Positions 4,862 to 60,795 are shown, counted from the stretch's first letter. The stretch: 64,000 bases of DNA from an uncultured Gammaproteobacteria bacterium (GCA_964344145.1 CAYFME010000001.1:16896-80895); one strand, 5' to 3'. The notes: generated by a model from the sequence alone, not told the origin. A program made the numbers and translations.

Positions 4862-5538
4862 TGTCAGATGAGCACAAGACGATACTCGTGATAGCACCCC
4901 ATCTTGACGATGAGGTGCTTGGGGTTGGAGGGACCATTGCCCGCGCGGTTGCGCAGGGATGCGACGTCCATGTGGGTTTCATCTGTAGCCGCGCCTATAA
5001 CCACCAGTACAATAGTGAGAATGATGCCAAAGAGGAGCAAGATGCACAGGCAGCGCGCCGGGTGCTTGGATACAAGAGCGCAACTTTTCTTCGATTACGT
5101 GATGAGCGGTTGTATGAGCAATTGATCGATGTGATCATCGGCATTGAGCGTATGGTGGAATCACTCCAGCCCCAAGTTGTCTACATTCCCCATCGGGGAG
5201 ACAACAATCAAGATCATCGCACCGTTTTTGAGGCCTCCATGGTGGCGCTTCGGAGTTTTTCCGCGCCTTGTGTGCGGGAGATCTATAGTTACGAAGTCGG
5301 ATCATCCACTGAGCAGGCGGCTCCCTTTACGGAGCACGCGTTCCTTCCCAACGCGTATGTGAACATTGAATCCGTCCTTGCCAAGAAGCAGCAGGCGTTG
5401 CAGTGCTATGAACGCGAACTGCGTGTGTTTCCCAACCCTCGATCCGTGAAAGGGGTGGACATCTGGGCAGCACGCCGGGGTGCGGAAGCGCATTGTCGGG
5501 CTGCGGAAGCGTTTGAGGTGATTCGCATGATCAAGTAA
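4861..5538 (+). CDS. PIG-L/LmbE-family de-N-acetylase
   Basis: ILVIAPHLDDEVLGVGGTIA, which is the PIG-L zinc-binding HxDDE-type motif. ATG overlaps the upstream TGA (GTGATG). Confidence 0.75.
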   Translation: MSDEHKTILVIAPHLDDEVLGVGGTIARAVAQGCDVHVGFICSRAYNHQYNSENDAKEEQDAQAARRVLGYKSATFLRLRDERLYEQLIDVIIGIERMVESLQPQVVYIPHRGDNNQDHRTVFEASMVALRSFSAPCVREIYSYEVGSSTEQAAPFTEHAFLPNAYVNIESVLAKKQQALQCYERELRVFPNPRSVKGVDIWAARRGAEAHCRAAEAFEVIRMIK

Positions 5539-5542
5539 CGGT

Positions 5543-6361
5543 ATGGAAGAAGGACGCATCGTTTTTATCGGCGCCGAGCGTGTGGGAAAGGCCGTTGCAC
5601 AAGCGCTCCTTGCGCAAGGAGCGCCCATTTGTGCCATTGTGACCGCGCACGAGGATCGTGCGCCACACATTGCAGATTATGTTTCTTTTCGTGATCTGGA
5701 AGAGCAGTATCCGCATGTGGACTTCCATTATGTGCGAGAGTCCAAGAGTGCGCAGGTGCGCGACTGTATTGCAGGCTATGCCCCCGAGTGTATTTTGGTG
5801 GCGAGCTGGTCTAATATCATTGCCCCAGATATTCTCTCGCTGCCTGAAAAAGGCGTCGTTGGCATGCACTACTCGTTGCTGCCCGATCGCCGCGGCGGGG
5901 CTCCGCTCAATTGGGCGATTATCGATGGGATTCCGGCGACCGGCATCACGCTGTACTATCTGGATGATGGAATTGATACAGGAGATATCATCGCGCAGCA
6001 GGATGTTCCTATTGATGCGGAGGATACGGTGAAGGATCTTCTTGATAAAATCATTGAGGCTGCTCCGTCACTTTTTTGCCGCCTTATTGATGATATCCTC
6101 GATGGCACGGCCCCGCGGATACCACAAAACGACGCGCAGGCTACCACAACGTCGCGTCGACGGCCAGCGGATAGCGCCATTGATTGGACGATGGATCTTG
6201 ATGCATTGCATCGATTTATCCGCGCCGTGGCCCCTCCCTATCCTGCGGCGTTTACGACACTCAAAACAAAACGCCTCGTGTTGACGAGCGCGAAGAAAGC
6301 GGGGGAGGGAAACCGTCTTTCCGTTACCGGTTACATTGAAGAGTATGACCACGAAGGATAA
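5543..6361 (+). CDS. sugar N-formyltransferase (Fmt/ArnA-N-like formyl_transf family)
   Basis: SWSNII...HYSLLPDRRGGAPLNWAIIDG, which is the formyltransferase HxSLLPxxRG active-site motif. Size and context fit a nucleotide-sugar N-formyltransferase. Confidence 0.75.
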   Translation: MEEGRIVFIGAERVGKAVAQALLAQGAPICAIVTAHEDRAPHIADYVSFRDLEEQYPHVDFHYVRESKSAQVRDCIAGYAPECILVASWSNIIAPDILSLPEKGVVGMHYSLLPDRRGGAPLNWAIIDGIPATGITLYYLDDGIDTGDIIAQQDVPIDAEDTVKDLLDKIIEAAPSLFCRLIDDILDGTAPRIPQNDAQATTTSRRRPADSAIDWTMDLDALHRFIRAVAPPYPAAFTTLKTKRLVLTSAKKAGEGNRLSVTGYIEEYDHEG

Positions 6362-7064
6362 TCATGCGCTGACCATCGTTGTCTGTTGTTTTAATGGGGA
6401 AGCGCACATCGAGGCGTGCCTCGCGTCACTGGCAAACCAAACAAGGGACGATTTTTCCGTGCTCATCATTGATGATGGATCGAACGATCGCTCAGCTATC
6501 ATTGCAGAGAAATTTGCCCAAACGCGTGCGGGATGGACACTGCGGGCTCATCCGGAAAATGCTGGACTGGTCGCGCGGTGCAATGAAGCGATCGCAACGA
6601 TTGCTACTCCGTTCTTTGCTCGTCTCGATGCAGATGATCTGTTTACTCCATACGCCGTGGAAAAAATGTATGTAGAGATGGCACGCATCGATGATGCGGC
6701 ATTTACGCTCTTTCAGCGATGGGATCTCTGGGAGGATGATACGCGTGCAATGGACGTACACGATGATCTCTATGAATGGATTGCCGCTGGAACGCTCTTT
6801 CGTACGGATGCGGTTCGGGCCGTTGGTGGATACGATAAAGAATTTTGGGAAGAGTATGATTTGTATCTCAAGTTATTGACGCAAGGGATGCGCTATCACG
6901 TTTCTCCCTTTAGTGTATACTACTACCGCCGCGGGCAGGAGAGCATGACGCAAAACCGCGCGGCAACGCTCAAGGGGTTCCGTTGTTTGGAGCAAAAATG
7001 GGGGTCCGCGGTGTTGCAGCAATACGGCAATGCTGATCGGATTCTCTCTTATTATCAACAATAA
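6336..7064 (+). CDS. family 2 glycosyltransferase
   Basis: LTIVVCCFNGEAHIEACLASLANQT...LIIDDGS. This is a GT-A N-terminus with a DxD-type motif region. The start may be the internal ATG at 6345. Confidence 0.75.
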   Translation: MKSMTTKDNHALTIVVCCFNGEAHIEACLASLANQTRDDFSVLIIDDGSNDRSAIIAEKFAQTRAGWTLRAHPENAGLVARCNEAIATIATPFFARLDADDLFTPYAVEKMYVEMARIDDAAFTLFQRWDLWEDDTRAMDVHDDLYEWIAAGTLFRTDAVRAVGGYDKEFWEEYDLYLKLLTQGMRYHVSPFSVYYYRRGQESMTQNRAATLKGFRCLEQKWGSAVLQQYGNADRILSYYQQ

Positions 7065-7067
7065 CGC

Positions 7068-7892
7068 ATGTACGTCCATATGAAACGACCTATCGTGATC
7101 GCAGAGATTGGAGAAAATTTTATCGGGGACCTTGATATCGCCCGTCGATTGATTGAGCAGGCAGCAGCAGCAGGGGCAGATTTTGCCAAATTTCAATCGT
7201 ATCGTCCGGAAACATTTGATAAGAGCGATCCGGAATATGATTGGTTCTGCAAAGTTTCTCTCTCTGATGACGATCATCGCATGCTGGCCGCACACGCGCA
7301 AAAGCACGGGATCGCCTTCATGAGTTCACCCTTTAGCTTAGAGCGCGCCCGTTTTCTCTGTGAGGGGATGGGTTGCAAAGAAATAAAGATCGCCTCTGGG
7401 ATGATGATGAACTTCCCCCTGCTCGATTATGTGAACGAGCATGCCCAGACGGTCTTTCTCTCAACCGGCATGGCAACCATTGAAGAGATTCGCGAAGCGC
7501 TCGCCCATCTTTCAAAGGTTCCGAAGGTGTATATTCTTCATTGTGTCACGCAATATCCATGCGCCGATGCTGACGCAAATCTTTCGGCAATAAACACACT
7601 GCAACGCACGTTTCCTGAGCACGAAATCGGCTATTCTGATCACACAGAGGGTGTTCTGGCACCCGTTATCGCGCATGCCATGGGAGCACGCGTGATTGAA
7701 AAGCACTTTACGTTCGACAAGAATGCAACCGAGGGAACGGATCATATTCTTTCAGCACTACCCGAAGAGCTTGGACAGATGATTACAGATATGCGCCGGG
7801 TAGAGCAGATGTATGGAAGCGGAGAAAAGGCTCCAAGGAAATCAGAGCAAGCCATTATCGATTTCGTGCGCAATCGCTTTTTAGAAGTATGA
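7068..7892 (+). CDS. NeuB-family ulosonic acid synthase, TIM-barrel domain only (no C-terminal SAF domain)
   Basis: IAEIGENFIGDLDIARRLIEQAAAAGADFAKFQSY matches the NeuB/PseI/SpsE N-terminus. At 274 aa it is too short to include the SAF domain. Confidence 0.7.
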   Translation: MYVHMKRPIVIAEIGENFIGDLDIARRLIEQAAAAGADFAKFQSYRPETFDKSDPEYDWFCKVSLSDDDHRMLAAHAQKHGIAFMSSPFSLERARFLCEGMGCKEIKIASGMMMNFPLLDYVNEHAQTVFLSTGMATIEEIREALAHLSKVPKVYILHCVTQYPCADADANLSAINTLQRTFPEHEIGYSDHTEGVLAPVIAHAMGARVIEKHFTFDKNATEGTDHILSALPEELGQMITDMRRVEQMYGSGEKAPRKSEQAIIDFVRNRFLEV

Positions 7893-8575
7893 TTGCCGGC
7901 ATTATTCAAGCTCGCATGGGGTCGACTCGTCTTGCCGGCAAGATGAACATGGAGATGCAGGGCGTTGCTCTTCTGACGTGGGTGCTGCGGCGTGTGAAGC
8001 GTGCAACACGTCTGGACGATGTTGTCTTGGCACTGCCAGATACAGCTGAAAATGATGTGCTGCACGCCATTGGTGATGAGGAAGGGGTGCGCGTTGTGCG
8101 TGGTGACGAGCAGGATGTGCTCGGTCGTTTTTTGAAGGCGGCATCGGTCGTGGGTGCGCAAACCATCGTGCGTATCTGTGCGGATAATCCATTGATCGCT
8201 CCCGAGGAGATTGATCGGCTCGTTCTTTTTTTTCAGAAGCATCCGTGTGACTACGCCTACAATCATATTCCGACAGATGATTACCCGGGACCGGACGGAC
8301 TTGGCGCGGAAATAGTGACCCGCGCCGCCCTCGATGCGAGTGCCGCGAGCACGGATTCCGATGATCATGAACATGTCACGCGCTATGTGAAGAGGCATCC
8401 GGAAACGTTCCGCCTGTTGGCAGCTCCTGCGCCGGCCGCCCTTCAGGGAATTCGTCATATGAAGTTTGATGTGGATACGCAGGCGGATTTCGATGATCTC
8501 ACCGCATTCACCTCTGGACTCACTCCACAAGCGACGCTTGAAGATATTATTGCGCAGGTACACGCAAACGCATGA
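7889..8575 (+). CDS. CTP_transf_3-family cytidylyltransferase (SpsF/PseF-like CMP-sugar synthetase)
   Basis: IIQARMGSTRLAGK glycine-rich NTP-binding motif. It is ATGA-coupled to the upstream NeuB-like gene, a classic SpsE/SpsF-type pairing. Confidence 0.7.
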   Translation: MIAGIIQARMGSTRLAGKMNMEMQGVALLTWVLRRVKRATRLDDVVLALPDTAENDVLHAIGDEEGVRVVRGDEQDVLGRFLKAASVVGAQTIVRICADNPLIAPEEIDRLVLFFQKHPCDYAYNHIPTDDYPGPDGLGAEIVTRAALDASAASTDSDDHEHVTRYVKRHPETFRLLAAPAPAALQGIRHMKFDVDTQADFDDLTAFTSGLTPQATLEDIIAQVHANA

Positions 8576-10287
8576 GCACTATCCGATTTTTTCTTAACCT
8601 CCTCGAGCCATTTCGCCCCCTTGCGATTGTACTTTTCGTTGCCATCCTGTGCTCGGCATTGTTTGAGAGTATTGGGATCGCTATGCTGGTTCCGCTGTTT
8701 GAGACGATTCTAAACGAAGGTGGGGAATCGCAACTGTCCAATGCCCTTGCGCCCGTGCTGCGATTGTTCGGTGCCCAGGAGAATGTTCCCGTTATTGCCG
8801 TGATCGTCCTGGTGATGTTTCTTGCAAAGAACGGGTTTCTTATTGCGACCGAATGGCTAAAGAGCAAGTTCATCTACCAGTTCCGCGCTTATTGGATGGA
8901 GCGCATTCACGCTTACTATATGCGCATGCCATATGGGGAATTGGTGCAGAAAAAACAAGGAACACTTATCGATACGTTGATCACGGAAACAAATAAAGGG
9001 GCGAGCGGTTTAGTGAACTTGGTGCAGTTCGTGACCGGTGTGGTGATGGTGACGGTTTTTTACACATTGCTTTTACTTGCGCATCTGGAGATGACTCTGA
9101 TTATGACCGCTGTCGCGCTCGCGTTGTATTTTGGCGTCGTGCGCACGATGAAGCGGTACTCAAAGGCTGTGGGCAAACAAGAGATCTTTTTTCAGCAGTC
9201 GCTCCATGAAGAGGCGGCAGAGAATATTCGTGCCACACGCCAAATTCGTACATTTGATCTGGAGGCCAGTGTGATCAGACGGTTTAACGAAACATTGCAT
9301 GCGCTGACGAAAATGCTCATCCGCTGGGATGTTGTGCGCGCTATTCCCAAGCCCACCGCCGAAGCCATGATTGTTGTGCTCTTTGTTGGCGTTGTGATGT
9401 GGTTGCAGCAGTATGATCCGGCACTCATGCGCACGCTGGTGCCGACCCTTGGAGTGATTGTTATTGTGGCGCAGCGCCTCTTCAATCATTTAACACAGCT
9501 GATTGTCCATCGCATGGTGGTGATTAGCTTCATGCCAGTTTTCGATTTGTTGCAGCGCGAGTTACGCGGGTTTCATTCCCTTCCCCCAGATACGCAAAAC
9601 GCACAAGCATGCACGCGTCTTTCCGACGACATTGCCTTTGCGGGGATGTGTTTTCAGTATCCGGGCAAGGAGCCACTCTTTGACAACGTGAGCTTCCAGA
9701 TTCCCCACGGGAAAACGACCGCGCTGATTGGAGCATCCGGTTCAGGAAAATCAACTATTGCCGACCTGCTCTTGGGGCTTTATGCGCCAACGAGTGGTGC
9801 GATCCTTGTCAACGGAATTGATCTGGAAACGATTGCCCCCACAACATGGCGACGGATGATCGGATTTGTGAGTCAGGATAATTTTCTCTTTCACACGAGC
9901 ATTGGCGAAAACATTCGCATCGGAACGCCCGAGGCGACGGACGAGGACATCCAGCGCGTGGCACGGCTCGCCAATGCCCATGATTTTATCACCCAGTTTC
10001 CCGAAGGATACGACACGATTGTTGGCGATGAAGGCGTGATGCTCTCGGGAGGACAGCGGCAGCGCATTGCGATCGCGCGTGCGTTGCTTCATAACCCTGA
10101 CATCCTTATTTTTGATGAGGCGACGAGCGCGTTGGACTTGGAGACCGAGCGCGCCATTCAACAAGAGATCGGTGCGTTGGCAAAAGGCAAGACGGTGATC
10201 ATCATTACGCATCGTCAAGAGGTACTTGCACACGTGGACCGCATCATCCGCATTGTTGACGGCGCCGTGCACATAGAAGATGTATGA
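8572..10287 (+). CDS. ABC exporter, fused permease + ATPase (MsbA/lipid-flippase-like)
   Basis: Six predicted TM helices N-terminally. Walker A GASGSGKST, signature LSGGQRQRIAIARAL, Walker B ILIFDEATSALD. Confidence 0.85.
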   Translation: MSTIRFFLNLLEPFRPLAIVLFVAILCSALFESIGIAMLVPLFETILNEGGESQLSNALAPVLRLFGAQENVPVIAVIVLVMFLAKNGFLIATEWLKSKFIYQFRAYWMERIHAYYMRMPYGELVQKKQGTLIDTLITETNKGASGLVNLVQFVTGVVMVTVFYTLLLLAHLEMTLIMTAVALALYFGVVRTMKRYSKAVGKQEIFFQQSLHEEAAENIRATRQIRTFDLEASVIRRFNETLHALTKMLIRWDVVRAIPKPTAEAMIVVLFVGVVMWLQQYDPALMRTLVPTLGVIVIVAQRLFNHLTQLIVHRMVVISFMPVFDLLQRELRGFHSLPPDTQNAQACTRLSDDIAFAGMCFQYPGKEPLFDNVSFQIPHGKTTALIGASGSGKSTIADLLLGLYAPTSGAILVNGIDLETIAPTTWRRMIGFVSQDNFLFHTSIGENIRIGTPEATDEDIQRVARLANAHDFITQFPEGYDTIVGDEGVMLSGGQRQRIAIARALLHNPDILIFDEATSALDLETERAIQQEIGALAKGKTVIIITHRQEVLAHVDRIIRIVDGAVHIEDV

Positions 10288-14463: not shown

Positions 14464-15030
14464 ATGATTATGCTATCATTTAGCAAAAGGGATATGAGTA
14501 ACGTTTGTAACGATAAATTTAAGAATCTTGTCCTCTACGTCCTATCTCACGAAGATTATAGGGAGGGAGGTATTAAGAAGTTGAATAAACTCCTGTACTT
14601 TATTGATTTCTATTTTTACAGAGACCACGAGGAGCTCATCTCGAACGTAGACTACGCAAAGGCAGACATGGGGCCTGTGGTTGACGGGTATAAGACTATT
14701 TTCAGTGCATTAGCCGAAGATGGCGTGATTGAGCAGGTGTCGAACGTGGGCTTTGTGGCGTATAAGGCGAACCAAGCACCAGATTTGAGTGATTTTTCTT
14801 CAGATGAGATCGCCCACATCGGACGAGTACTCGATCAGTATGGGAAACTTTCTGGAAGTGACTTGGAGTTAATCTCTCATCAGCAGCAACCGTGGGTGCT
14901 TACTGAAAGCATGGGAGATAAGATTGATCCTGATTTAGCACTCTTAATTGCAGATAGTGATAATGAAGATGTGGAAGTTCAAAATCAGGATTTGAAGAAC
15001 GAACTGATTGATCTTGCAAATTCTGTGTAG
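14464..15030 (+). CDS. Panacea-domain (DUF4065, SocA-like) putative antitoxin
   Basis: KKLNKLLYFIDFYFYRDHEELISNVDYAKADMGPVVDGY matches the DUF4065/Panacea core (KLxKLLYF...GPV..). The gene is AT-rich relative to its flanks. Confidence 0.6.
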   Translation: MIMLSFSKRDMSNVCNDKFKNLVLYVLSHEDYREGGIKKLNKLLYFIDFYFYRDHEELISNVDYAKADMGPVVDGYKTIFSALAEDGVIEQVSNVGFVAYKANQAPDLSDFSSDEIAHIGRVLDQYGKLSGSDLELISHQQQPWVLTESMGDKIDPDLALLIADSDNEDVEVQNQDLKNELIDLANSV

Positions 15031-15033
15031 CCT

Positions 15034-15363
15034 ATGGCTAAAATTACGGTTGAAGTCCTGGAGTCGCTACAAAAGGAGGTAGATAAAGGTGGTCCGAAAA
15101 TCAAGAAATTATTCGAAAAACAAAAACGATTCATGGAAATGAATCCCAACTATCCATCACTGGGACGAACCAAGCTGCAGGGCGTCTTTGACAAATATGG
15201 TGATCCACTTTGGGAAATTCGTTTGAACAAAAAGGACAGAATCGTATTTGTGGAAAGAAACAGCGGCGAAAGAGTCATCTGGTTGAAGATTGTTGACCAC
15301 GATTCACTCGTCAGAAAGAACACGATTCATGCAAAAGGAAACTATAAAGACACCCCTTGCTGA
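15034..15363 (+). CDS. small protein with RelE/ParE-like toxin C-terminus (putative cognate toxin)
   Basis: LWEIRLNKKDRIVFVERNSGERVIWLKIVDH resembles the RelE/ParE superfamily motif LYELR..RiiY...v.vL.i.hR. It starts 4 nt after the Panacea gene stop. Confidence 0.45.
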   Translation: MAKITVEVLESLQKEVDKGGPKIKKLFEKQKRFMEMNPNYPSLGRTKLQGVFDKYGDPLWEIRLNKKDRIVFVERNSGERVIWLKIVDHDSLVRKNTIHAKGNYKDTPC

Positions 15364-15368: not shown

Positions 15369-16427
15369 TTAACTCTTTTTCGCAACAATCCGCAAGACAT
15401 CACGATTCGGTCCGTACTGGAAATCAGGATGCTGTAATAATGTGTAGAAATCGGGCGCGCGGTGTTTTGCAAGCATCGTAAGCCAGCCGCGCGTTGCGCG
15501 CTGTCCAAGCACCATACGGCTCGCGTTTAAGATCAACTGTTTCTTTTGCTGGCGGGCATGCGTTCTTTTAAGATTCGCATGCGTTGTTTTTGACGAGTGC
15601 ACTCCCTCTTTAACGTCCGTGGTCATTTCTTGCGCCGCCGCCGTGGATTCGAGGGATCGTACCGTGCGCTTCACATCTTCTTGTTTGCCCGCGCTGCCGA
15701 TAAATTGTGTTTCCAAGCCGGCGTTTGCGCAGACGCGCTCGAGTGATTCCATGCTGAAGAAGGAGAGGTGGGGAATTGAGTAATACTGATAGCGTGTCAG
15801 ATCTTCATTTGGGACTTCGCAAATAAAGATACCGCCTGGTGCGAGGAGCCGTGCCACATGCGCGACAATCCCCGGAACATCGTGTGCATTGAAATGCTCC
15901 AGCGAGTGGGACATGACAATCACGCGAAACGTATTGTCCGGAAGCTCGGCAATGGGCTCCGGACCGAACAATTGAGGAACAATCGTTGCGCCAAGTTTTT
16001 GTAGTCGAGGATGAGCGTCTTCCTGCGGCTCAACCGCCCAATACTCCATCGGCACATTAAGGCGCGTACATGTATGGAAGAAGTGCCCGGGACCAGGACC
16101 GATATCCAAAAGTTTATCCGTTGGTTTTGGATCAACATACTGGCGCATGAGCAGTACCTGCGCGAGCGCGCGCGGCTCAAAGTGAAATGGATTGCCAACA
16201 TTCAAGAGGGGATTTTTCCCCCCTTTCATGGCTCTGCCGGTGTAGGCTTTTGTGTAGAAGGCATCGAGGTCCTCCTCTGCAATGCGCTCCCCGCCGAAGC
16301 TAAACCGACAGTTGTTGCACGAATAGATGCTCAGCTGACGAAAGGAGGACGGCATGTCCATGGTGCCGGTGTAGTAGTCTCTTTTCCTCTCCGTATTTGT
16401 TGGCGTGGTACAGATGGGGCAGTTCAT
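15369..16427 (-). CDS. class I SAM-dependent methyltransferase with N-terminal CxxC zinc ribbon
   Basis: Start chosen at the ATG (16427) preceded by GGAG. MNCPICTTP...CNNCRF zinc ribbon, LLDIGPGPGHFF motif I, LAPGGIFICEVPNED. Confidence 0.7.
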   Translation of the reverse strand: MNCPICTTPTNTERKRDYYTGTMDMPSSFRQLSIYSCNNCRFSFGGERIAEEDLDAFYTKAYTGRAMKGGKNPLLNVGNPFHFEPRALAQVLLMRQYVDPKPTDKLLDIGPGPGHFFHTCTRLNVPMEYWAVEPQEDAHPRLQKLGATIVPQLFGPEPIAELPDNTFRVIVMSHSLEHFNAHDVPGIVAHVARLLAPGGIFICEVPNEDLTRYQYYSIPHLSFFSMESLERVCANAGLETQFIGSAGKQEDVKRTVRSLESTAAAQEMTTDVKEGVHSSKTTHANLKRTHARQQKKQLILNASRMVLGQRATRGWLTMLAKHRAPDFYTLLQHPDFQYGPNRDVLRIVAKKS

Positions 16428-16549
16428 GGGAATCTCCGTATTATGAATGCTGGGAGAGTATAGCAACAGGACGGAGACCATGGCAATACTCCTGTTTCAG
16501 AACAATTGACAGGCTTTCTTTGTATGCTACCATCGAATCCACAATACCT

Positions 16550-18949
16550 ATGGACAGTTCGGCACAAAAAAGAGCGGTGATTCTCGGTGCGGGTCCGGTG
16601 GGACTCGTTTCTGCGTGGCAGCTTGCAGAGCAAGGGTGGGCGGTAGAGATTTTTGAGAAGCAGGATCGCGTTGGGGGGATGTGCCGCACATGGAAGTGGC
16701 GCAATTTTCTTGTTGATACCGGACCACACATTTATCACACACCAGACACGCAACTTGCACAATTTTGGGAAGAACATTTCGGCGACCTTTTTGTGAAGGG
16801 GGAGTTTTGGTGTAAGAACGTTCGTGGGGAGCATTTTGATGAGTATTGGGACTACCCGCTATCGTGGGAGAGTATTGGTAAGTACCCACAGGAACTCAAG
16901 GAGACCATTCTCCAAGAGTTAGATGAACGAAGTGGGTACGACAAAGCGCGTGCGCGAAATTATACCGAGTACATGGATGCGTTAGTTGGTCCAACACTCC
17001 GAAAGATGTTTTTTGAAACGTATCCAAAAAAGGTTTGGGGCATTACGACCGACGAGATGACACCGGACTGGGCGCCCAAGCGTATGGAGTTTCGGCAGAA
17101 CGTCACTCCCTTTTATCACAACCAATGGAATGCGGTGGGGAAGTATGGAACGGGATGTATTTACGAACGGATCGCCCAAAAGATTCGAGCGCTCGGAGGC
17201 ACGATCCATCTTAATACAGAGGTGCGCAAGATTTGCGCGGACGGGAAGACATTAACGGCGATTGAATTTGCCGGTGATCGCGCGCCGTTGGTGCTCACGC
17301 CGGATGATGTGGTGATTTCCAGTTTACCCATTACGCTCACCGCGCGCTTTTTCGGCCATCAGAGCAAGCTTTCTTTTCGCGGTATCTGTGCCATCTATCT
17401 TGCGTATAAGAAGAAGGAAATTTTGCCGGAGGGGGTTCATTGGCTCTATTATGGTGCGGATGACATTGATTTTAATCGCATTACGGAGTCCAAGAAACTC
17501 GCCCCAAATGTGGCACCCGAAGATGAAACCTTTTTAACGATCGAGGTGACGTATAGCCGCGGAGATGACATTGACACCATGGATCCTGAGGTGCTTGCCA
17601 AGCGCATTGCACAGCAGGTGGAGCGTGTGGGGCTGGCGCGCGAAGACGAGGTGATTGATTGGAGTATTAACAAAGAGCCGTTTGTTTATCCATTGCAATA
17701 TGCCGGGTATCAGGATGAACTCGTAAAGACGCGCGCGGTTGTATCGCAATTTTCGAATCTCTATTCCATTGGTACCGGTGGAGATTATAACTACGCGGAT
17801 AGTCAAATTCTCTTTCACAAAGCCTTTGATACGGTGGCGATTCTTTGTGATAAGGATGCGTCGTACACGCAGGTGATTCGCGAGCAACGTCACGTAGAGC
17901 TCAATGAGACGATGGAGATCGGCGATCGCCGCATCGGAGAGGGTGAGCGACCGTTTATCATTGCCGAAGCAGGGATGAATCACAACGGAAGCATCGAGCT
18001 GGCAAAAGAATTGGTTGATGCCGCCGCGCGTGCAGGTGTTGATGCGGTGAAGTTTCAGACGTTCCGTGCAGCAAACCGTATTTCGCAGAAAGTGAAGGGC
18101 GTGCGTTACGCAGAGACAGTTATTGGGCTGGAAGAGACGCTCTATGAGATGTTCGACCGCTTAGCGATGTCCCCGGAAATGCACAAAGAGCTGTTTGCGT
18201 ATGCACGCGCGCAGGGCATTGAGATTTTTTCAACACCATTTGATGAGATCAGCGTTCGCTTGCTAGAGGAGCTCGGCGTGCCCATGTACAAGATCGCTTC
18301 GATGGATCTCGTGAACCTACCGCTCATTCGTACCGTGGCGCGCACCGGTAAGCCAATGATTCTGTCAACCGGGATGTCTACGATGGGACAGATTGAAGAG
18401 GCGCTGGATGCCGTTCGTGCACAAGGGAACCCAAACGCAGCACTTTTGCATTGCAACTCGTCGTATCCGGCGGCACCAAATGAGATGAACCTGCGCGCGA
18501 TTCAAACTATGCGCACAGCGTTTCGCGTGCCCACCGGGCTTTCGGATCACACGCTTGGTCTATCAGCATCGCACACGGCGCTTGCGCTGGGAGCCAATAT
18601 TATTGAGCGTCATTTTACCCTCGACCGTACGCTTGAAGGTCCGGATCATATTCTTTCCTCGGAACCGGATGAAATGGCCGAGCTTGTCGGGCTTGCGCGC
18701 ACCATTCCGGCGATGCTTGGCGATGGAGTGAAACGTATTCAGCCAAACGAGTACCAGACGTTGAATCAACAGCGAAAGAGTATCTATGCAGCGCGAAATA
18801 TCAAGGTGGGCGAGACGATAGACGCCGATGCGATTACCGTAAAGGGTCCTGGCGGGGGGCTGTTGCCGCGCTACGTCGAGATGGTGATTGGTCGCCCTGC
18901 ACGCCAAGACATCGAAGCCGATTATCCAATAACGTGGGACAATGTATAA
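16550..18949 (+). CDS. fusion: FAD/NAD(P)-binding oxidoreductase (amine-oxidase/Glf-like fold, N) + full-length NeuB-family ulosonic acid synthase with SAF domain (C)
   Basis: Start at the ATG (16550) after a 122-bp divergent intergenic region. N-terminus RAVILGAGPVGLVSAWQLAEQGWAVEIFEKQDRVGGMCRT is a dinucleotide-binding GxGxxG-EK-GG motif. From ~residue 480: PFIIAEAGMNHNGSIELAKELVDAAARAGVDAVKFQTF (NeuB TIM barrel). C-terminal SAF-like segment IKVGETIDADAITVKGPGGG. Confidence 0.7.
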   Translation: MDSSAQKRAVILGAGPVGLVSAWQLAEQGWAVEIFEKQDRVGGMCRTWKWRNFLVDTGPHIYHTPDTQLAQFWEEHFGDLFVKGEFWCKNVRGEHFDEYWDYPLSWESIGKYPQELKETILQELDERSGYDKARARNYTEYMDALVGPTLRKMFFETYPKKVWGITTDEMTPDWAPKRMEFRQNVTPFYHNQWNAVGKYGTGCIYERIAQKIRALGGTIHLNTEVRKICADGKTLTAIEFAGDRAPLVLTPDDVVISSLPITLTARFFGHQSKLSFRGICAIYLAYKKKEILPEGVHWLYYGADDIDFNRITESKKLAPNVAPEDETFLTIEVTYSRGDDIDTMDPEVLAKRIAQQVERVGLAREDEVIDWSINKEPFVYPLQYAGYQDELVKTRAVVSQFSNLYSIGTGGDYNYADSQILFHKAFDTVAILCDKDASYTQVIREQRHVELNETMEIGDRRIGEGERPFIIAEAGMNHNGSIELAKELVDAAARAGVDAVKFQTFRAANRISQKVKGVRYAETVIGLEETLYEMFDRLAMSPEMHKELFAYARAQGIEIFSTPFDEISVRLLEELGVPMYKIASMDLVNLPLIRTVARTGKPMILSTGMSTMGQIEEALDAVRAQGNPNAALLHCNSSYPAAPNEMNLRAIQTMRTAFRVPTGLSDHTLGLSASHTALALGANIIERHFTLDRTLEGPDHILSSEPDEMAELVGLARTIPAMLGDGVKRIQPNEYQTLNQQRKSIYAARNIKVGETIDADAITVKGPGGGLLPRYVEMVIGRPARQDIEADYPITWDNV

Positions 18950-20848: not shown

Positions 20849-21532
20849 ATGAAACTTGTTGCCGTCATCCCCGCGCGCGCAGGGAGCAAGAGCGTGCCAA
20901 AGAAAAATATCCGTCCGCTTGATGGAAAGCCCCTGCTTCAATACTCGGTTGAGTACGCGCTTGCGTGCCCGCTCGTTGATCGGGTCGTTGTTTCAACGGA
21001 TTCGCAAGAATTTGCCGATGTTGCCAAGAAGGCAGGCGCCGAGGTGCCTTTTTTGCGCCCCGCAGAGTTTGCGACGGATGACGCTCAGGATTATGGCGTG
21101 ATGCGTCATGCCTTAGACGCGCTGGAGGAGCTTTGGGGAGAAAATATTGACCTCATTGCTCTGTTACGCCCGACTTCTCCCCTGCGCCCAAAGGGTCTTA
21201 TTGAGCGTGCTGTGACACTGATGGATCAGCATCCGGAGGCGACGCATATCCGCTCGGTTGCCAAGAGCGTGGAGCATCCATATCGGCAATGGAAATACAA
21301 TGGTCCCTTTATCGAAGGGCTTTTTTCTGACGTTGATGAGTCTTATAACATTCCACGACAAGCCCTTCCGGAGATGTTTTTTCAAACAGGGGATTTGGAA
21401 ATGATGCGGCGTGAAACACTGCTCGCGGGGTCGATCACCGGTTCACGTGTGCTGCCTCTGATTATTGATCACGATGCGATGGTAGACATCGATACCGAGG
21501 CGGATTTTGCCGAAGCAACAAGCCGTGTATGA
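20849..21532 (+). CDS. N-acylneuraminate (CMP-NulO) cytidylyltransferase, NeuA-like
   Basis: VAVIPARAGSKSVPKKNIRPLDGKPLL is the canonical NeuA/CTP_transf_3 N-terminus. Length 227 aa. Confidence 0.8.
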   Translation: MKLVAVIPARAGSKSVPKKNIRPLDGKPLLQYSVEYALACPLVDRVVVSTDSQEFADVAKKAGAEVPFLRPAEFATDDAQDYGVMRHALDALEELWGENIDLIALLRPTSPLRPKGLIERAVTLMDQHPEATHIRSVAKSVEHPYRQWKYNGPFIEGLFSDVDESYNIPRQALPEMFFQTGDLEMMRRETLLAGSITGSRVLPLIIDHDAMVDIDTEADFAEATSRV

Positions 21533-23310: not shown

Positions 23311-24965
23311 GCAAAATCATCGCGCTCTATCGACCAACGCGCATTGATCGTCTCCAAGCACGTATTGCCCACCTGTGTGGGCGGACGGTTTATGAGTGGG
23401 CAAATCCGGATGCCCCGCATCGCATTGCCTTTCCACCGAGCCGTGAATGGACACCCATCATGCTCGATGCGCGCGAACGACTCGCCCGCTACCGTGATCG
23501 GCACTGGCAGCATGCTCCGGATGTGTACATGCGTGATTATGTCTGCAAAACATACGACCTGTTGATTGGAGACTATACCGCCTTCCGAGTTGCTCTCGCC
23601 GAGCAACATGCTGACGATCATGTTCGGATCGTGGGATCACGCGTATTGCGGCGTATTCATGATGGCGAAGCACCAACGCGTTCTCTGATCTTTTTTCTTG
23701 GACTGCCGGTGGCTTTTTTCCTGTTTGTACGCACACTGTTGCGCGCCTCGCTCCTCTCTCTTATGGCAAAGGGTGATGTTGAGCATCCCGAGGTTCTTTA
23801 TGTGCGCAAAAAAGTGTATCCGGATTTGTCGGTGAGTGCGCGATTAGGGGCGGCGGTGCGCGCACAGGATCTGACCTTTGCCGGATCCTTTCTTGCGTTC
23901 GGGCGAGCAAAAGAGCGCTACGGCTTTTTCTTTCTCAATGCGTTTGCTGGTGCCGGGCGTCTTGTCAGACTCGCTGCGTGGCGTGTTGCGCGGACGATGG
24001 TCAGTGATGCACGGTTTTTTTATCGCGCCGGGGTGCCGGTACGATTGTTTTCAACGTATTTGAGGCACGCACTACACGCGGCGATGATCACAGGGCTTAG
24101 GAGTCGGTTGCTTACCGGTGTGCTTGTCGACAAGCCCTTTTTTGTTTTGCTTGCACGGTACAAGCGTGCAGAGCAACGGATGGTGAGTCTAAATGAGTTT
24201 TTCTCTTTTTATCCGTATCGCGGATTTGATTACAATCATTTAGACATTTATTATTCCATGAATGCCATTGATGCCGCACAACAAAACAAACATGGGGGCC
24301 GTATCCACGAGACACGCCATATTCCATTTTTTCGGCAGCATCAAGTCAGTACCGGAAAGGGGATTTCAAAAGATCTTCAGGTGCTTCTTGCGCAATACAA
24401 AACGCGCGTGTTGGCAACCACAACGCAAATCGCCACGCGCGTCTATTCGCAATGGTCCACTGATGAGCTGTGTGCATTCATTCGGACGATCGGGGAGCTT
24501 GCTCGTGCCAATCCCAATCAGTTGTTCATTATCAAAGGAAAAAAAGGCGAACTTCGCGCCATGCCCGCTGATGAACTTCGCGCCATCGAAGCGCAGCCGA
24601 ACGTCTATGTTATCCATTCCGATGTGCCGCGCATGCTCGAGTATAATCAATTTGAAGATCTGCTCCCCAAGGCTAACGTCTTGATCTCCATGGCACATCA
24701 ATCGACAACGGTCTGGCAGGCGATCGCATCTGGGATTCCAGCGATTGCCGTCAACGACGTGCATCCAAAGAGCTTCCTCTCCGAATACAAGCATCTTGAG
24801 GTTCCTCTGGACGCGCTTGCAGACGCATTAACGTATTGGTTGACGGTAACCCCGGAGGCATGGCAAGCATTTCGGGAACAACTTGTCCGGCAGGTGAATA
24901 TCAGCGATGCCGATGGTATGCAGATCGTCGCAAAGGATATATTGAAGATTCAGGAAGATGTATGA
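23307..24965 (+). CDS. hypothetical protein, possibly TagF-like/GT-B polymerase
   Basis: ATGA coupling at both ends. The C-terminal region (IIKGKKGE...VYVIHSDVPRMLEY...VLISMAHQSTTVWQAIASGIPAIAV) loosely resembles the C-terminal nucleotide-binding half of TagF-like enzymes. Weak. Confidence 0.3.
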   Translation: MSKIIALYRPTRIDRLQARIAHLCGRTVYEWANPDAPHRIAFPPSREWTPIMLDARERLARYRDRHWQHAPDVYMRDYVCKTYDLLIGDYTAFRVALAEQHADDHVRIVGSRVLRRIHDGEAPTRSLIFFLGLPVAFFLFVRTLLRASLLSLMAKGDVEHPEVLYVRKKVYPDLSVSARLGAAVRAQDLTFAGSFLAFGRAKERYGFFFLNAFAGAGRLVRLAAWRVARTMVSDARFFYRAGVPVRLFSTYLRHALHAAMITGLRSRLLTGVLVDKPFFVLLARYKRAEQRMVSLNEFFSFYPYRGFDYNHLDIYYSMNAIDAAQQNKHGGRIHETRHIPFFRQHQVSTGKGISKDLQVLLAQYKTRVLATTTQIATRVYSQWSTDELCAFIRTIGELARANPNQLFIIKGKKGELRAMPADELRAIEAQPNVYVIHSDVPRMLEYNQFEDLLPKANVLISMAHQSTTVWQAIASGIPAIAVNDVHPKSFLSEYKHLEVPLDALADALTYWLTVTPEAWQAFREQLVRQVNISDADGMQIVAKDILKIQEDV

Positions 24966-27079
24966 GGGGCGCAACAGGACAACGGGCAGATGCCCCGCAT
25001 GAGATTCGGGAGAACCTTCGTACGTTTTCGAACATTCTTTCTTCGTGCGGAGTTCCGTTTTGGTTGGAGGCAGGGACGGCGCTTGCGGCGCATCGCGATG
25101 GGAAGATTTTTCCCTGGGAGCACGATGTGGATGTGGCGACATGGATTGATCACAAGGAGGGCGTGTTGAGTGCTGTTTCAAAGATGCGCGCACGGGGCTG
25201 GACGGTGAAGATCCAAAAGGGCTTTCCGTACCTCGATAACATTATCCAGGTCACCTTGCCGACGCTTCCAGACGGTCGTGAGCCATTCCCGAATCAATAC
25301 GACATCTATCTGTATCGCCGTGTGGAGGATAAGGCGATGATGCGGTGGATCCATCAGCCAACTGGGCGTTTCGCTTCGCTACAAAAGAAGATGATCTGGT
25401 ACGCAAAGGCATTGGCGCTGCCACGTGGGCGCAAGGCGAGGAGCGTCAAGTGGATTCCGCAATCCCTTCGTCGCGGTGTCTTTGCCCTTGTCTTGCACCT
25501 TCTTGTCCGCTTTGGACAATGCAAATACCACGTGCATCCATTGCGTTTTTTTCAAGAGCTGCGAACGATGGATTTTTACGGTGTTACGGTGCAGATTCCC
25601 AAGGATACCGATGCGTTTCTTGCGCACCGTTATGGACCGGGATGGAAAAGCCCTGATCCGCAATTTAACCAAAGCGGGAAGTGGAAGAAATCAAACGCGC
25701 GCCCCGAGTTACCGTTGCGCCTACTAGGGATGCCACGTATTGAGTATGGATTACAAGAGCGAAGGAATGAGCGTGTGGAGCTTGCACAACAGTTGATGCA
25801 GGCGGGCGTGCGTGCCGGACATCCCGCAGCGTTTATGCGCGATCTTGTCTCTCGCGACGGGAGCACACTCACGATCAATGGGCAGCAGTATCCTATTGAA
25901 AATGGTGTGAAGATGCTTGCGTTTGGCAAGGCGGCCGGCTCAATGGCGGAGGCATTTGTTGAGATGGTTGGAGCGGAGCGTATCAGTGCGGGGTTAGTGT
26001 CCGCTCCGCGTCTTGATACCTCATCGCTGCGCCAATATGCGCAGATTGAATGTATTGAAGGAACCCATCCGTTTGTGAGTGAGCAGAGTCTCTTGGCAGG
26101 ACAGCACGCGCTCGCTTTTGCAGATGCGTGCACGGAATCGGACGTGGTCGTCTGCCTTGTGTCCGGTGGCGGTTCCGCATTGCTCGCCCATCCGGCGGAG
26201 GGGATCACGCTTCAACAGAAAATTGACTTTGTACGCACGTGTATGCAGCGTGGTATTGCGGAGCGAGAATTGAATGTCGTGCGAAAGGGACTCTCAGCGA
26301 TCAAGGGAGGAAAGTTGGCGAGAAAAATGGCTCCTGCGACCATCGTAAACATCATTCTTTCTGACGAGCGGTCGCATCAGATAGAGGCAAATGCATCTGG
26401 CCCAACGGTGCCAAACAATACGACGCTGACTGCCCAAGCCGTGCTGCAAGAAGCGGGGATGTGGGAAGAAACGCCGCGGCATCTGCGTGACGTGCTGGTG
26501 CGCAATCCATCACTCACGGATGATGATCTTGCAGACATCCATCTGGCGACGAGGTTAGTGCCCGGGCGAGATCATGCCCTTGCTGGTATGCGAAAAGCGG
26601 CAGCGCGTTTATGTGATTCCGTTACGGTGCACGAGGATTTTTTTCACGAAAAGACGCACGGAAGTGTTGAGGAAGTCGCGCAACGGTTGGGTACGTTCTT
26701 TCGTAAACAATTTGCGCACGCCGGGGCTGGCCGACACGCAGTACTTGCCCATGGAGAAGTTATGGTTCCGGCAAAAAAAGAAAGTCGTGGTGGCCGATGT
26801 CAGCACCTCGCAGCGCTTATGCTTAATGAATTGCGCTCTATTCCTGCGTTCACGTTTGCGGCGCTGTCCTCAGACGGGTGTGACTTTTTGCACGGAGTGC
26901 ACGGAGCGGTGATCACCGATGCAACCATCGCACGCGTTGACCGTGATCGTATTGACTGCGCAGATGCTGTTGACCAGACAGCAACCCATGCGTTGCATGA
27001 GCGGCTTGGCACGTTAGCAACTGGAGACTACACTGGGACGAATGTAAACGACTACTATATTTTCATCTTCGATACGTAA
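24962..27079 (+). CDS. fusion: LicD-family (phosphocholine/phospho-polyol transferase fold, N) + glycerate 2-kinase MOFRL family (C)
   Basis: N-terminus FWLEAGTALAAHRDGKIFPWEHDVDVA is the LicD/fukutin WLxxGTLLGxxRxxxxIPWDDDxD motif. The C-terminal half carries KMLAFGKAAGSMAEAF (GKAA..MA) and VVCLVSGGGSALLAHPAEGITLQQKIDFVRTCMQRGIAERELNVVRKGLSAIKGGKLA (SGGGSAL...RK.LS.IKGG.LA). Also AALSSDGCDFLHGVHGAVIT, the MOFRL DGxDG motif. Start ATG at 24962 forms an ATGA overlap. Confidence 0.7.
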   Translation: MRGATGQRADAPHEIRENLRTFSNILSSCGVPFWLEAGTALAAHRDGKIFPWEHDVDVATWIDHKEGVLSAVSKMRARGWTVKIQKGFPYLDNIIQVTLPTLPDGREPFPNQYDIYLYRRVEDKAMMRWIHQPTGRFASLQKKMIWYAKALALPRGRKARSVKWIPQSLRRGVFALVLHLLVRFGQCKYHVHPLRFFQELRTMDFYGVTVQIPKDTDAFLAHRYGPGWKSPDPQFNQSGKWKKSNARPELPLRLLGMPRIEYGLQERRNERVELAQQLMQAGVRAGHPAAFMRDLVSRDGSTLTINGQQYPIENGVKMLAFGKAAGSMAEAFVEMVGAERISAGLVSAPRLDTSSLRQYAQIECIEGTHPFVSEQSLLAGQHALAFADACTESDVVVCLVSGGGSALLAHPAEGITLQQKIDFVRTCMQRGIAERELNVVRKGLSAIKGGKLARKMAPATIVNIILSDERSHQIEANASGPTVPNNTTLTAQAVLQEAGMWEETPRHLRDVLVRNPSLTDDDLADIHLATRLVPGRDHALAGMRKAAARLCDSVTVHEDFFHEKTHGSVEEVAQRLGTFFRKQFAHAGAGRHAVLAHGEVMVPAKKESRGGRCQHLAALMLNELRSIPAFTFAALSSDGCDFLHGVHGAVITDATIARVDRDRIDCADAVDQTATHALHERLGTLATGDYTGTNVNDYYIFIFDT

Positions 27080-34535: not shown

Positions 34536-34705
34536 AGGAAAGCACCCTCCGCAAGGAGGGTGCTTCTTGGATGTAATACCCTAACAGTCTATGGCTAGAC
34601 TGAAAGACACTAAAATCATAGCCTGTGGAGTCGATTCTGTCAATAGTGGTCCCGTCGCGTCAAGTTGACGCGAAAAGGCCAAATGAGTACCCTGAGGCTA
34701 GAAAA

Positions 34706-56955: not shown

Positions 56956-57052
56956 CGCTGTGGATAAAGCCTAAGGCTCGTTGAAGAAAAGTGCTAGAAT
57001 GCATCATATCGGTGTTAGATCCATTCAAAAGAAACCTAGACATGTTAAATGT

Positions 57053-58471: not shown

Positions 58472-58480
58472 GTAGATAAT

Positions 58481-60391
<1,911 letters not shown>

Positions 60392-60419
60392 GTGAATTGA
60401 ATTCTGATATAATTGTCTC

Positions 60420-60794
60420 ATGTCCACATTTCTTCTTGGACTACGCTATTTCTTCCTCGATTTGGTCGGCGGTATTTTGCGCTGGCCGCTTTGGTGGTAC
60501 ACGCAGGGATTGGCGTTTATGGTCCGATGGGCCGTCGGCACGATTAAAGGGTACTCACGTACGCTCGCCATTCGCGTGTGGATCAAGAATATTTTTGTGC
60601 CGATGTTTGGCATGTATGACTGGCAGAGTCGGTTGATTAGTTTCTTCATGCGCGTCGTGCAGATCATCGGACGGTCTATCGCCTTGGTGATCTTTGTGTT
60701 TGTGGCTTTGTTCGCCCTGGCGATCTATGTGTTGATTTTGCCAACGACTGTTGGATTTGCAGCGTATCATTTCATGGGAGCCCTGGTGACATAG
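60420..60794 (+). CDS. small membrane protein
   Basis: 124 aa, three or four hydrophobic helices. Stop is 2 nt before the ClpC-like gene start. Confidence 0.4.
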   Translation: MSTFLLGLRYFFLDLVGGILRWPLWWYTQGLAFMVRWAVGTIKGYSRTLAIRVWIKNIFVPMFGMYDWQSRLISFFMRVVQIIGRSIALVIFVFVALFALAIYVLILPTTVGFAAYHFMGALVT

Positions 60795-60795
60795 T

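Follow-up and report, generated by a model that had tools for sequence, protein, structure and literature searches.

The window analysed here is a 64,000-nucleotide stretch of DNA from an uncultured Gammaproteobacteria bacterium (GCA_964344145.1 CAYFME010000001.1:16896-80895). On its + strand, at 16550-18949, lies a gene in which a flavoprotein domain resembling UDP-galactopyranose mutase (UGM) is fused in frame to a NeuB-type synthase. At the level of the sequence, this gene was shown to encode one polypeptide carrying two apparently intact catalytic modules. The fusion, no singularity of the window locus, represents a family that is old, widespread and as yet without a name; it is conserved in at least fifteen phyla that include abundant ocean cells (SAR11, SAR86, SAR116, Prochlorococcus and Nitrososphaerales) and the genome-reduced Candidate Phyla Radiation (CPR). 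In many microbes, surface glycans, flagella and S-layers are capped by nonulosonic acids (NulOs), which govern recognition by phages, predators and hosts. Both halves of the fusion are known kinds of enzyme; their combination, the active-site changes specific to the clade and the partner protein encoded beside it are undescribed in the literature that we searched. In a full-text search that excluded subscription-only papers, no paper was found to describe a fusion of the UGM-NeuB or FAD-NeuB kind, and a large phylogeny of NulO synthases (PMC8208679) makes no mention of FAD, fusions or mutases.

A flavin module and a synthase module in one reading frame

The + strand reading frame is open without a stop across 16397-18949. 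The ATG at 16550 is the likely start and gives a protein of 799 aa; it is favoured because the length of the N-terminus then matches that of the homologues, which have 5-8 residues before the motif K-x-A-I-I-L-G-A-G-P. The database copy (P0001) is annotated 10 codons longer at the 5' end (809 aa). A preliminary description of this DNA, made from the sequence alone, had proposed an in-frame fusion of a dinucleotide-binding flavoprotein domain to a full NeuB and SAF module, and both the Pfam domains and the uninterrupted open reading frame (ORF) agree with it; its coordinates, domain order and junction were borne out by domain mapping with hidden Markov models. At the junction, near 17.95 kb (residue ~468), the assembled sequence contains neither a stop nor a frameshift, which the preliminary description had named as the point to check. 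An independent Logan assembly (ERR2281801, locus L001) carries an identical gene with the same neighbours. That a sequencing error at the junction merged two neighbouring genes has therefore practically no chance of being the explanation: besides the independent assembly, more than 120 clusters and 65 genomes from at least fifteen phyla have the ORF in the same fused form, and the linker between the modules is short and partly conserved. A junction frameshift or artefact was ruled out by these comparative data (independent assembly, clusters and genome loci).

The C-terminal part is a complete NeuB module including SAF, as had been claimed. Pfam NeuB matches residues 488-728 (7e-90, 301 bits) over the full profile (1-241 of 241), and the SAF domain follows (Table 1). 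In NCBIfam, NeuB_NnaB (TIGR03569, the NeuB/LegI type) matches residues 468-792 with 389.7 bits against an equivalog cut-off of 399.65, and PseI (TIGR03586) scores 328.4 bits against a cut-off of 340.25. Since both scores are below the equivalog cut-offs, the module is a family member that is not assignable to N-acetylneuraminic acid (Neu5Ac), legionaminic acid (Leg) or pseudaminic acid (Pse) synthesis. It shares the TIM barrel, the SAF domain and the metal and phosphoenolpyruvate (PEP) residues with the NeuB/LegI/PseI synthases (PF03102 + PF08666; 1XUZ, 8H2C, 1VLI) at ~40% identity, and differs from them in the ~450-residue N-terminal flavin domain and at two active-site positions described below.

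The metal ligands H215 and H236 of Neisseria meningitidis NeuB (NmNeuB) correspond to H667 and H688, and the PEP-binding and catalytic residues E25, K53, Q55, K129, S132, S154, S213, E234 and D247 correspond to E473, K501, Q503, K581, S584, S606, S665, E686 and D699; none of these is missing from any of the 56 scorable fused domains. The two positions that differ are NmNeuB E134, which is Asp (D586) in 56/56 fused domains, and R314 of the SAF domain, an Arg that extends into the partner's active site and is G766 here (Gly in 60/62 and Ala in 2/62 fused domains). The surrounding K765-G766-P767-G-G-G is invariant, compared with (K/V/L)-R-P in NeuB, PseI and SpsE. N. meningitidis NeuB, Campylobacter jejuni PseI and Bacillus subtilis SpsE all have Glu and Arg at the E134 and R314 positions, and the stand-alone NeuBs within the same loci are mixed at both. 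In the NmNeuB structure, R314 reportedly contacts the N-acetyl group of the substrate. If it does, its loss makes doubtful the hexosamine substrate suggested in the preliminary description: the fused enzymes probably use a substrate without a 2-acetamido group, and probably one other than N-acetylmannosamine (ManNAc), diNAc-altrose or diNAc-mannose.

By its profile matches and conserved residues, the N-terminal domain is a member of the UGM superfamily and no Glf orthologue. In Pfam it matches NAD_binding_8 (residues 11-75, 6.8e-17), Amino_oxidase (PF01593, residues 18-408, 3e-21, 76.6 bits against a cut-off of 19.8) and GLF (residues 154-334, 32.4 bits against a gathering cut-off of 26.3). 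The PF01593 model covers a shared fold that UGM and protoporphyrinogen oxidase (PPO) also match. The best NCBIfam models for this half are those named 'PRK07208 hypothetical protein'. In a single-sequence search of the PDB, UGMs made up 9/12 top hits, the best six included (top E 1e-11). With a family profile, Trypanosoma cruzi UGM (TcUGM, 4dsg) was matched at 3e-19 over residues 5-413, Klebsiella pneumoniae UGM (KpUGM) at 1e-15 and Aspergillus fumigatus UGM (AfUGM) at 1e-13 (UGM range 3e-19 to 1e-12), against 2e-6 for PPO; amine oxidases, L-amino acid oxidase (LAAO) and LSD1 aligned over the first ~60 residues only, at E 1e-5 to 1e-3. An AlphaFold2 (AF2) model of the domain (pLDDT 74.5, pTM 0.75) was closest to 4dsg in Foldseek (template modelling (TM) score 0.69, 21% identity; UGMs 0.65-0.69). 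We prefer the UGM label on the strength of the profile searches and of the residues conserved, the fold search being indecisive. A generic amine oxidase or PPO identity, prompted by the Pfam E-values and the Foldseek ranking, was rejected as the preferred label on the same two grounds. The amine-oxidase/UGM-like fold of the preliminary description holds as far as the fold and the FAD-family matches in Pfam go, and is refined to UGM-like, as solved amine oxidases match only ~60 residues.

The roles of UGM residues were taken from PMC3624792 (Table 3) and mapped through printed alignments to KpUGM and AfUGM, and conservation was scored in 29 fused representatives (50% identity clusters) and 83 stand-alone relatives. 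In the FAD-binding segment, G13, G15, G18, E36 and G42-G43 are invariant (alignments A1 and A2). The flavin histidine loop (Kp G58-P59-H60-I-F-H-T, Af G62-H63) corresponds to G58-P59-H60, with the His present in 27/28 deep fused representatives. Among the uracil-stacking residues, Af Y104 corresponds to Y102, Kp F152/Af F158 to F154/F155, Kp Y155 to Y158 and Kp W160/Af W167 to W163, and these uridine-binding residues are kept in 24-29/29 fused representatives. The diphosphate clamp is represented by R178 (Kp R174/Af R182; 28/29), Y300 (Af Y317; 29/29), R310 within R310-I-T-E (Kp R280/Af R327; 29/29), Y380 (Kp Y314/Af Y419; 28/29) and Y415 (Af Y453, with Kp Y349 in the UGM set; 28/29). Taken together, the UGM-type nucleotide and flavin residues are invariant among close homologues, are kept in 27-29/29 fused representatives and are retained in the 83 stand-alone relatives as well. 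The galactose-contacting UGM positions (N194 and Y189) are variable in the family, and at Y189 (= Kp Y185) the Tyr is confined to the close subfamily. Identity per column averages 71% in alignment A2 of the N-domain and 73% in the full-length alignment A1.

Compared with UGM itself (Glf, PF03275; 1WAM/3GF4 from K. pneumoniae, 4DSG from T. cruzi and 3UTE from A. fumigatus), the N-domain has in common the three-part flavoprotein fold, the GxGxxG motif with its Glu, the G-P-H loop, the uracil-stacking Tyr/Phe/Trp and the two Arg and three Tyr at the diphosphate, whereas it is only ~20% identical, lacks the Arg at the FAD pyrophosphate and has other residues at the sugar-contacting positions. UGM itself is not known to occur as a fusion with a synthase. 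Its closest unfused relatives are stand-alone FAD proteins of the PRK07208 type (NF005547/NF005548; <=32% identity), which carry the same UGM-type residue set and differ in being unfused, in keeping the Arg equivalent to Kp R343 (81/83) and in having mostly Asn at the position of D417 in the fused clade; databases name them 'hypothetical protein', 'protoporphyrinogen oxidase' or 'FAD-dependent oxidoreductase'. The N-domain should bind FAD together with a UDP- or dTDP-type sugar, as judged from these residues. UGM catalysis is non-redox: N5 of the reduced flavin displaces UDP and an iminium adduct is formed in which the sugar ring is opened (PMC3624792, section 3.3 and Fig. 8). Because the nucleotide-sugar and flavin-loop residues of UGM are kept, non-redox flavin catalysis on a nucleoside diphosphate sugar (NDP-sugar) upstream of NeuB would be expected. 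The preliminary description had offered oxidation or isomerisation; the former does not fit the retained UGM residues and their non-redox chemistry, and the latter is nearer the mark.

Distribution of the fusion and its constant partners

The protein search covered 5.8 billion proteins, and the figures given here are those of the best 120 clusters. All of these are ~795-aa fusions, at 59-76% identity and 95-100% query coverage, and they include Omnitrophota, Marinimicrobia, Magnetococcales, Thermodesulfobacteriota, Gammaproteobacteria, Margulisiibacteriota and one Nitrososphaerales archaeon. A genome scan with one genome per species returned 79 loci, among them SAR11 (including a closed Pelagibacterales chromosome), SAR116, SAR86, Prochlorococcus, Nitrospina, Nitrospiraceae, Elusimicrobia, Terriglobia, Planctomycetes and four CPR lineages; the nearest match among the species-representative genomes was a Zetaproteobacteria metagenome-assembled genome (MAG) at 70% identity. 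Looking for the architecture in other genomes, as the preliminary description had proposed, thus recovered the same fusion in at least 120 clusters, and both halves lie in a single ORF at 65/71 genome loci. The six other loci comprise four that are cut by a contig end and two (L070 and L078) that are possibly broken genes. Two cultured strains, Arcobacter iocasae KX21116 and Rheinheimera sp. YQF-1, carry the fusion, which makes it directly testable. The fused proteins are deposited under the names 'N-acetylneuraminate synthase family protein', 'FAD-dependent oxidoreductase' and 'sialic acid synthase SpsE/protoporphyrinogen oxidase', and the family merits an annotation of its own instead of 'N-acetylneuraminate synthase family protein' or 'protoporphyrinogen oxidase'.

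Used alone as the query of an exhaustive HMMER search, the N-domain returned 5,604 relatives. Those at 28-48% identity are still 780-830 aa long, and both halves were present in 8/8 distant representatives of ~800 aa that were tested (N-domain identity down to 28%). Among the best 150 representatives, the full-length hits (>=33% N-domain identity, >=700 aa) were all fused where tested. One protein of 490 aa (P0126; 40% identity) covers query residues 11-477 without a NeuB domain and is a candidate shortened gene call; clear stand-alone relatives of the N-domain (425-490 aa) appear only at <=32% identity. The pairwise identities of the two halves correlate (r = 0.77, 1,891 pairs), consistent with a single old fusion inherited as one gene. 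Viral contigs contained no fusion, only distant UGM-like genes at 23-24% identity. One locus of the genome scan (L021), on a 13-kb contig, comes from a MAG whose record bears the name Leptospira interrogans serovar Manilae; its fusion (58% identity over the N-domain) may have been binned or labelled wrongly and may not stem from a Leptospira.

No neighbour of the fusion is more constant than an NAD(P)-binding protein, which is present at about 58/63 loci with enough flank (as read from tables) and is usually encoded by the very next gene. It has no NCBIfam match, its PDB sequence search matched Rossmann segments only, and its AF2 model (pLDDT 91.9) has a best PDB fold match of TM <=0.41; the homologues (~350-400 aa, P0271-P0390) are named only 'hypothetical' or 'NAD(P)-binding'. 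The partner belongs to an orphan family in close linkage with the fusion. As its candidate roles, reduction of the flavin in the N-domain and dehydrogenation of the alpha-keto acid were considered.

A CTP_transf_3 gene, encoding a CMP-transferase, accompanies the fusion in most loci, a homologue of the short-chain dehydrogenase/reductase (SDR) of the window adjoins it in about half, and about a quarter contain an aldo-keto reductase (AKR). Arcobacter, Rheinheimera, SAR86, Paceibacteria and Saccharibacteria share the order SDR, fusion, NAD-binding protein, (methyltransferase), CMP-transferase, and SDR, fusion, NAD-binding protein and CMP-transferase form the core in CPR, SAR86 and Arcobacter. 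The conserved cassette is situated within loci for surface polysaccharides. A Thermodesulfobacteriota locus (L008) has the same gene set as the window; a Methyltransf_23 gene stands between the NAD-binding gene and the CMP-transferase there and in Arcobacter (L075). The AKR follows the CMP-transferase in Thermodesulfobacteriota, Magnetococcales and SAR86 loci too, and a class-III aminotransferase recurs in Arcobacter, Paceibacteria and Marinimicrobia, and Rheinheimera has an equally long gene at this position. The CMP-transferase of Omnitrophota, Zetaproteobacteria, Thaumarchaeota and SAR11 is joined in one protein (~590 aa in all) to a divergent NeuB-like domain that lacks SAF and keeps most catalytic residues in the five scorable copies. 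Such NeuB-like + CTP_transf_3 fusions (~580-606 aa; Table 1) follow the NAD-binding partner in many genomes and represent a second uncharacterised NeuB fusion.

Possible roles of the flavin domain

NeuC and LegG (Epimerase_2) and PseG (a GT-B hydrolase) turn a nucleotide sugar into the free aldose for the synthase, and to our knowledge every described pathway frees the sugar from its nucleotide by a hydrolase of the NeuC/LegG or PseG type before NeuB acts. NeuB itself is said, from the structure of NmNeuB with reduced ManNAc (rManNAc), to act on the open-chain aldose. We tentatively propose, giving it somewhat less than an even chance, that an NDP-sugar loses its nucleotide in the flavin domain and that the ring-opened aldose is passed on to NeuB for condensation with PEP. 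The flavin domain would then play the part that falls to NeuC, LegG or PseG in the classical pathways, a functional analogy without homology, as fold and cofactor are unrelated. Reduced FAD would attack C1 of an NDP-sugar of the UDP or dTDP type and expel the nucleotide as in UGM, leaving a flavin-iminium adduct with the sugar ring open. This adduct would be hydrolysed instead of, or in competition with, furanose re-closure and re-attack by the nucleotide, so that the reaction, other than that of UGM, may end in sugar release and not in ring contraction, and the free acyclic aldose would move to the adjoining NeuB site. NeuB would condense it with PEP to a 3-deoxy-2-ulosonic acid, which the NAD-binding protein, SDR, AKR, methyltransferase or class-III aminotransferase would tailor, and the cytidylyltransferase would form the CMP-sugar for a glycosyltransferase. 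The loss of the SAF Arg suggests a substrate without a 2-acetamido group, to which any nitrogen would be added after condensation. In the Kdo8N (8-amino-3,8-dideoxy-D-manno-octulosonic acid) pathway of Shewanella, the oxidase KdnB and the aminotransferase KdnA act on the finished ulosonic acid. This is a precedent for post-condensation nitrogen, and the fusion cassette often has dehydrogenases and a class-III aminotransferase; the Shewanella pathway differs in its enzyme families, in its eight-carbon sugar and in having neither a flavin domain nor NeuB.

The proposed coupling would account for the welding of a nucleotide-sugar flavoenzyme to an enzyme that requires a free aldose. It would also explain that close relatives never have the pair split, that they mostly do without the classical hydrolase and that the cassette is compact even in CPR and SAR11 genomes. 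Several points weigh against it. We know of no UGM homologue characterised as a hydrolase; all are mutases. The NCBIfam model for UGM (TIGR00031, UDP-GALP_mutase) scores only 42 bits against an equivalog cut-off of 303.75. The FAD-pyrophosphate Arg (Kp R343/Af R447) is T409 here, and the position is A, T, S or C in 24/29 deep fused representatives and R in 2/29. The N-domain model is poor in loops 85-108 and 177-201, which are expected to close over the substrate, and in Foldseek PPO and coproporphyrinogen oxidase (CgoX) reach TM 0.61-0.65 at 14-16% identity, so that the fold alone is indecisive. Channelling between the two sites, which the preliminary description had suggested, is plausible but conjectural. 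Lastly, the Arcobacter locus has an Epimerase_2 gene 3.7 kb downstream of the fusion, although this could pair equally well with a UDP-sugar dehydrogenase at the start of the locus. This gene overturned the statement, considered earlier, that no NeuC-like gene lies anywhere near the fusion, and the argument was weakened to absence in most inspected loci: no NeuC/LegG (Epimerase_2) or PseG-type gene was found within +-10 kb at five loci with precomputed Pfam matches, and none in the Pfam-annotated part of the window island, in which several ORFs have no Pfam match.

As all characterised enzymes of the UGM family are mutases, the fusion may also be a plain bifunctional enzyme, in which the N-domain would be a pyranose-furanose mutase feeding a furanose donor, NeuB would independently use a free sugar, and the fusion would serve co-expression or assembly. 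The full nucleotide-retaining set (both Arg and the Tyr residues) is conserved, as re-attack by the nucleotide requires, the glycosyltransferases and Wzy-like protein of the island could use a furanose donor, and the Arcobacter Epimerase_2 could supply the free sugar. We nevertheless consider this unlikely: so obligate a fusion (65/71 loci and nearly all close relatives) would not be expected from convenience alone, the halves co-evolve (r = 0.77), the constant partners are a CMP-transferase and an NAD-binding protein and no furanosyltransferase, the clade-specific NeuB changes D586 and G766 suggest adaptation to the fused context, and the cassette is compact in the CPR and SAR11 loci inspected. 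Even if the N-domain is only a mutase, the fusion constitutes a large, unnamed and easily recognisable marker family for a surface-sugar pathway.

Redox tailoring, the idea of the preliminary description, would make the N-domain an FAD oxidase or dehydrogenase of the amine-oxidase/PPO type acting on the sugar substrate, for instance by turning an amine or alcohol into the aldehyde required by NeuB, or on the ulosonic product. Amino_oxidase does have a better Pfam E-value than GLF, PPO and CgoX come close behind UGM in the fold search, the fused clade, unlike its canonical UGM-like relatives, no longer has the Arg343/447 equivalent, and in situ formation of an aldehyde for a PEP-condensing enzyme is chemically attractive. 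It is nonetheless distinctly improbable, because the family-invariant residues are the uracil and diphosphate binders of UGM, none of which an enzyme acting on a free sugar or NulO would need, and the sequence matches to amine oxidases, LSD1 and LAAO end after ~60 residues, with PPO at 2e-6 against 3e-19 for UGM. Conserved nucleotide-binding residues combined with drifting sugar-contacting positions and one lost FAD-pyrophosphate contact would also suit an N-domain without catalysis, either a UGM-derived nucleotide-sugar sensor that regulates NeuB allosterically or an oligomerisation scaffold. This we regard as very improbable, since conservation of the FAD motifs and of the catalytic histidine loop equals that of the NeuB active site and the N-domain is strongly constrained over its whole length (71% mean column identity, against 73% for the full-length protein).

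Returning to the proposed coupling of the two sites, its furthest consequence would be a new flavin-N5-iminium 'NDP-sugar opener' that replaces NeuC, LegG or PseG and provides a third route to an undescribed CMP-ulosonic acid on marine and CPR surfaces; this wider claim is doubtful, though far from negligible. The product may be a CMP-ulosonic acid without a 5-acetamido group that is aminated or methylated after condensation, and, if the claim is true, it would decorate the surfaces of SAR11, SAR86, SAR116, Prochlorococcus, CPR and marine Thaumarchaeota. True coupling would mean a new catalytic use for the flavin-iminium chemistry of UGM, a compact gene set defined for a new CMP-sugar, and a genetic handle on the unassigned ulosonic-acid signals of environmental mass-spectrometry surveys. 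In one Omnitrophota locus (L002), a GHMP kinase and an NTP_transferase are encoded directly upstream of the fusion (8287-9988); we take these to be the pair that makes GDP-heptose in Campylobacter capsule loci, and a heptose substrate and a C10 product are a possibility in this lineage. Unassigned C10 CMP-ulosonic acids have been described in Magnetospirillum (bioRxiv 10.64898/2026.04.20.719630). By analogy, the product may even have a longer backbone, like these acids, where genes of the GDP-heptose type adjoin the fusion.

The cassette of the window and its polysaccharide island

In the window, the fusion is the first gene of a tightly packed + strand run in which stops and starts overlap or nearly abut (Table 1); an FkbM methyltransferase follows the AKR. 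The cytidylyltransferase of the run is predicted to CMP-activate the product. Promoter-like sites across the region are in total no more numerous than the shuffled expectation, and the TTGACA-16-TACCAT site upstream of the fusion is a lead only as its putative promoter. On the - strand, another promoter-like site (16486-16457) lies inside the 5' end of the 370-aa Methyltransf_23 ORF; the true start of this methyltransferase may be the internal Met 19 (about 16427).

Table 1. Positions of the fusion, its parts and its neighbours in the window, and of NeuB-like + CTP_transf_3 fusions at other loci
Feature	Position	Strand	Remarks
Fusion gene: UGM-like flavin domain, linker, NeuB TIM barrel, SAF	16550..18949	+	799 aa plus stop
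UGM-superfamily N-domain, residues 1 to ~440	16550..17869	+	PDB profile search, residue conservation, AF2 model
Predicted FAD-binding Rossmann segment, residues 6-75	16565..16774	+	G13-x-G15-x-x-G18, E36, G42-G43, G58-P59-H60-I-Y-H63-T64
Short linker, residues ~441-452	17870..17905	+	Q441 and L451 nearly invariant (alignment A1); NmNeuB residues 4-20 align from residue ~452
NeuB TIM-barrel module, residues ~453-742	17906..18775	+	Pfam NeuB; alignment to 1xuu, 8h2c, 1vli
SAF (antifreeze-like) domain, residues 743-799	18776..18946	+	Pfam SAF 1.6e-11, 45 bits
Promoter-like TTGACA-16 nt-TACCAT with TG extension	16506..16533	+	17 nt ahead of ATG 16550; consensus scan, 10/12 matches
SDR, 254 aa	18942..19706	+	adh_short_C2 5e-53; start overlaps stop of fusion
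NAD(P)-binding partner, 378 aa	19709..20845	+	weak Rossmann matches only in Pfam
Cytidylyltransferase, PseF-like, 227 aa	20849..21532	+	CTP_transf_3 3e-22; TIGR03584 PseF 144.9 bits, cut-off 205.7
AKR, 294 aa	21529..22413	+	Aldo_ket_red 3e-30; optional cassette member
Methyltransf_23 methyltransferase, divergent	15369..16481	-	Pfam 7.6e-21
NeuB-like + CTP_transf_3 fusions at other loci	L002/L003 13472-15223; L004 8068-9840; L010 11455-13272		also L012, L013, L020, L021, L038, L040, L043, L080

Taken as a whole, the window represents a surface-polysaccharide island of ~56 kb that encodes glycosyltransferases of families 2 and 4 (GT2/GT4), a Wzy-like protein, an initiating transferase and a PglF-like dehydratase. 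A second NeuB homologue, which had been reported as truncated, is indeed present at 7068-7892 (274 aa; NeuB 3.7e-71, 265 bits) without a SAF match. The preliminary description had also counted three distinct CMP-sugar synthetases. Three CTP_transf_3 genes are there (7889-8575, 20849-21532 and 32230-33003), two of them of the NulO type; the third scores 296.7 bits with the NCBIfam KdsB model against a cut-off of 255 and is thereby a CMP-Kdo (3-deoxy-D-manno-octulosonic acid) synthetase and no nonulosonate enzyme. The suggestion that more than one ulosonic acid is made agrees with the two NeuB genes, the two NulO-type cytidylyltransferases and the one KdsB. The SAF-less NeuB and the adjacent CTP_transf_3 gene (7068-8575) were considered as a split form of the ~590-aa NeuB-CTP fusions of other genomes, which they probably are not (265 against 44-85 NeuB bits).

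This pair ends a run of genes (2912-8575) encoding a 649-aa ORF with aminotransferase and dehydratase parts, a PIG-L deacetylase, a formyltransferase, a GT2, the SAF-less NeuB and the CTP_transf_3 protein. A legionaminic-acid-type cluster with a deacetylase and a formyltransferase has been described in Ca. Kuenenia (bioRxiv 10.64898/2026.04.20.719630), and the run in the window resembles it; by this analogy, the product of the run may be a NulO that is formylated or has a free amine.

At 14464-15363, with a block of glycan genes on either side, lie a SocA/Panacea antitoxin-like gene (188 aa) and, after it, a 109-aa ORF. The 14-16 kb region is the lowest-GC stretch of the window (0.483), and the SocA/Panacea arrangement is also found in assembly L001; a small toxin-antitoxin module seems to have been inserted directly ahead of the cassette. 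Two further ORFs of the island are each a putative fusion or a merged gene call: one of 747 aa (24836-27079) with LicD, DUF4147 and MOFRL (glycerate-kinase-like) domains, and one of 660 aa (34625-36607) with GT2 and zinc alcohol dehydrogenase domains. A split transketolase (N and C subunits, 46774-48533) and a TylF-like methyltransferase (49885-50652) also lie within the island, which hints that the chain of a sugar is extended by two carbons or branched. Near 56.6 kb the island comes to an end, and the stretch beyond it (56981-63480) encodes an fn3-domain protein, Tgt (queuine tRNA-ribosyltransferase), an IS200-like Y1 transposase-like protein (237 aa) and a ClpB-like AAA+ ATPase.

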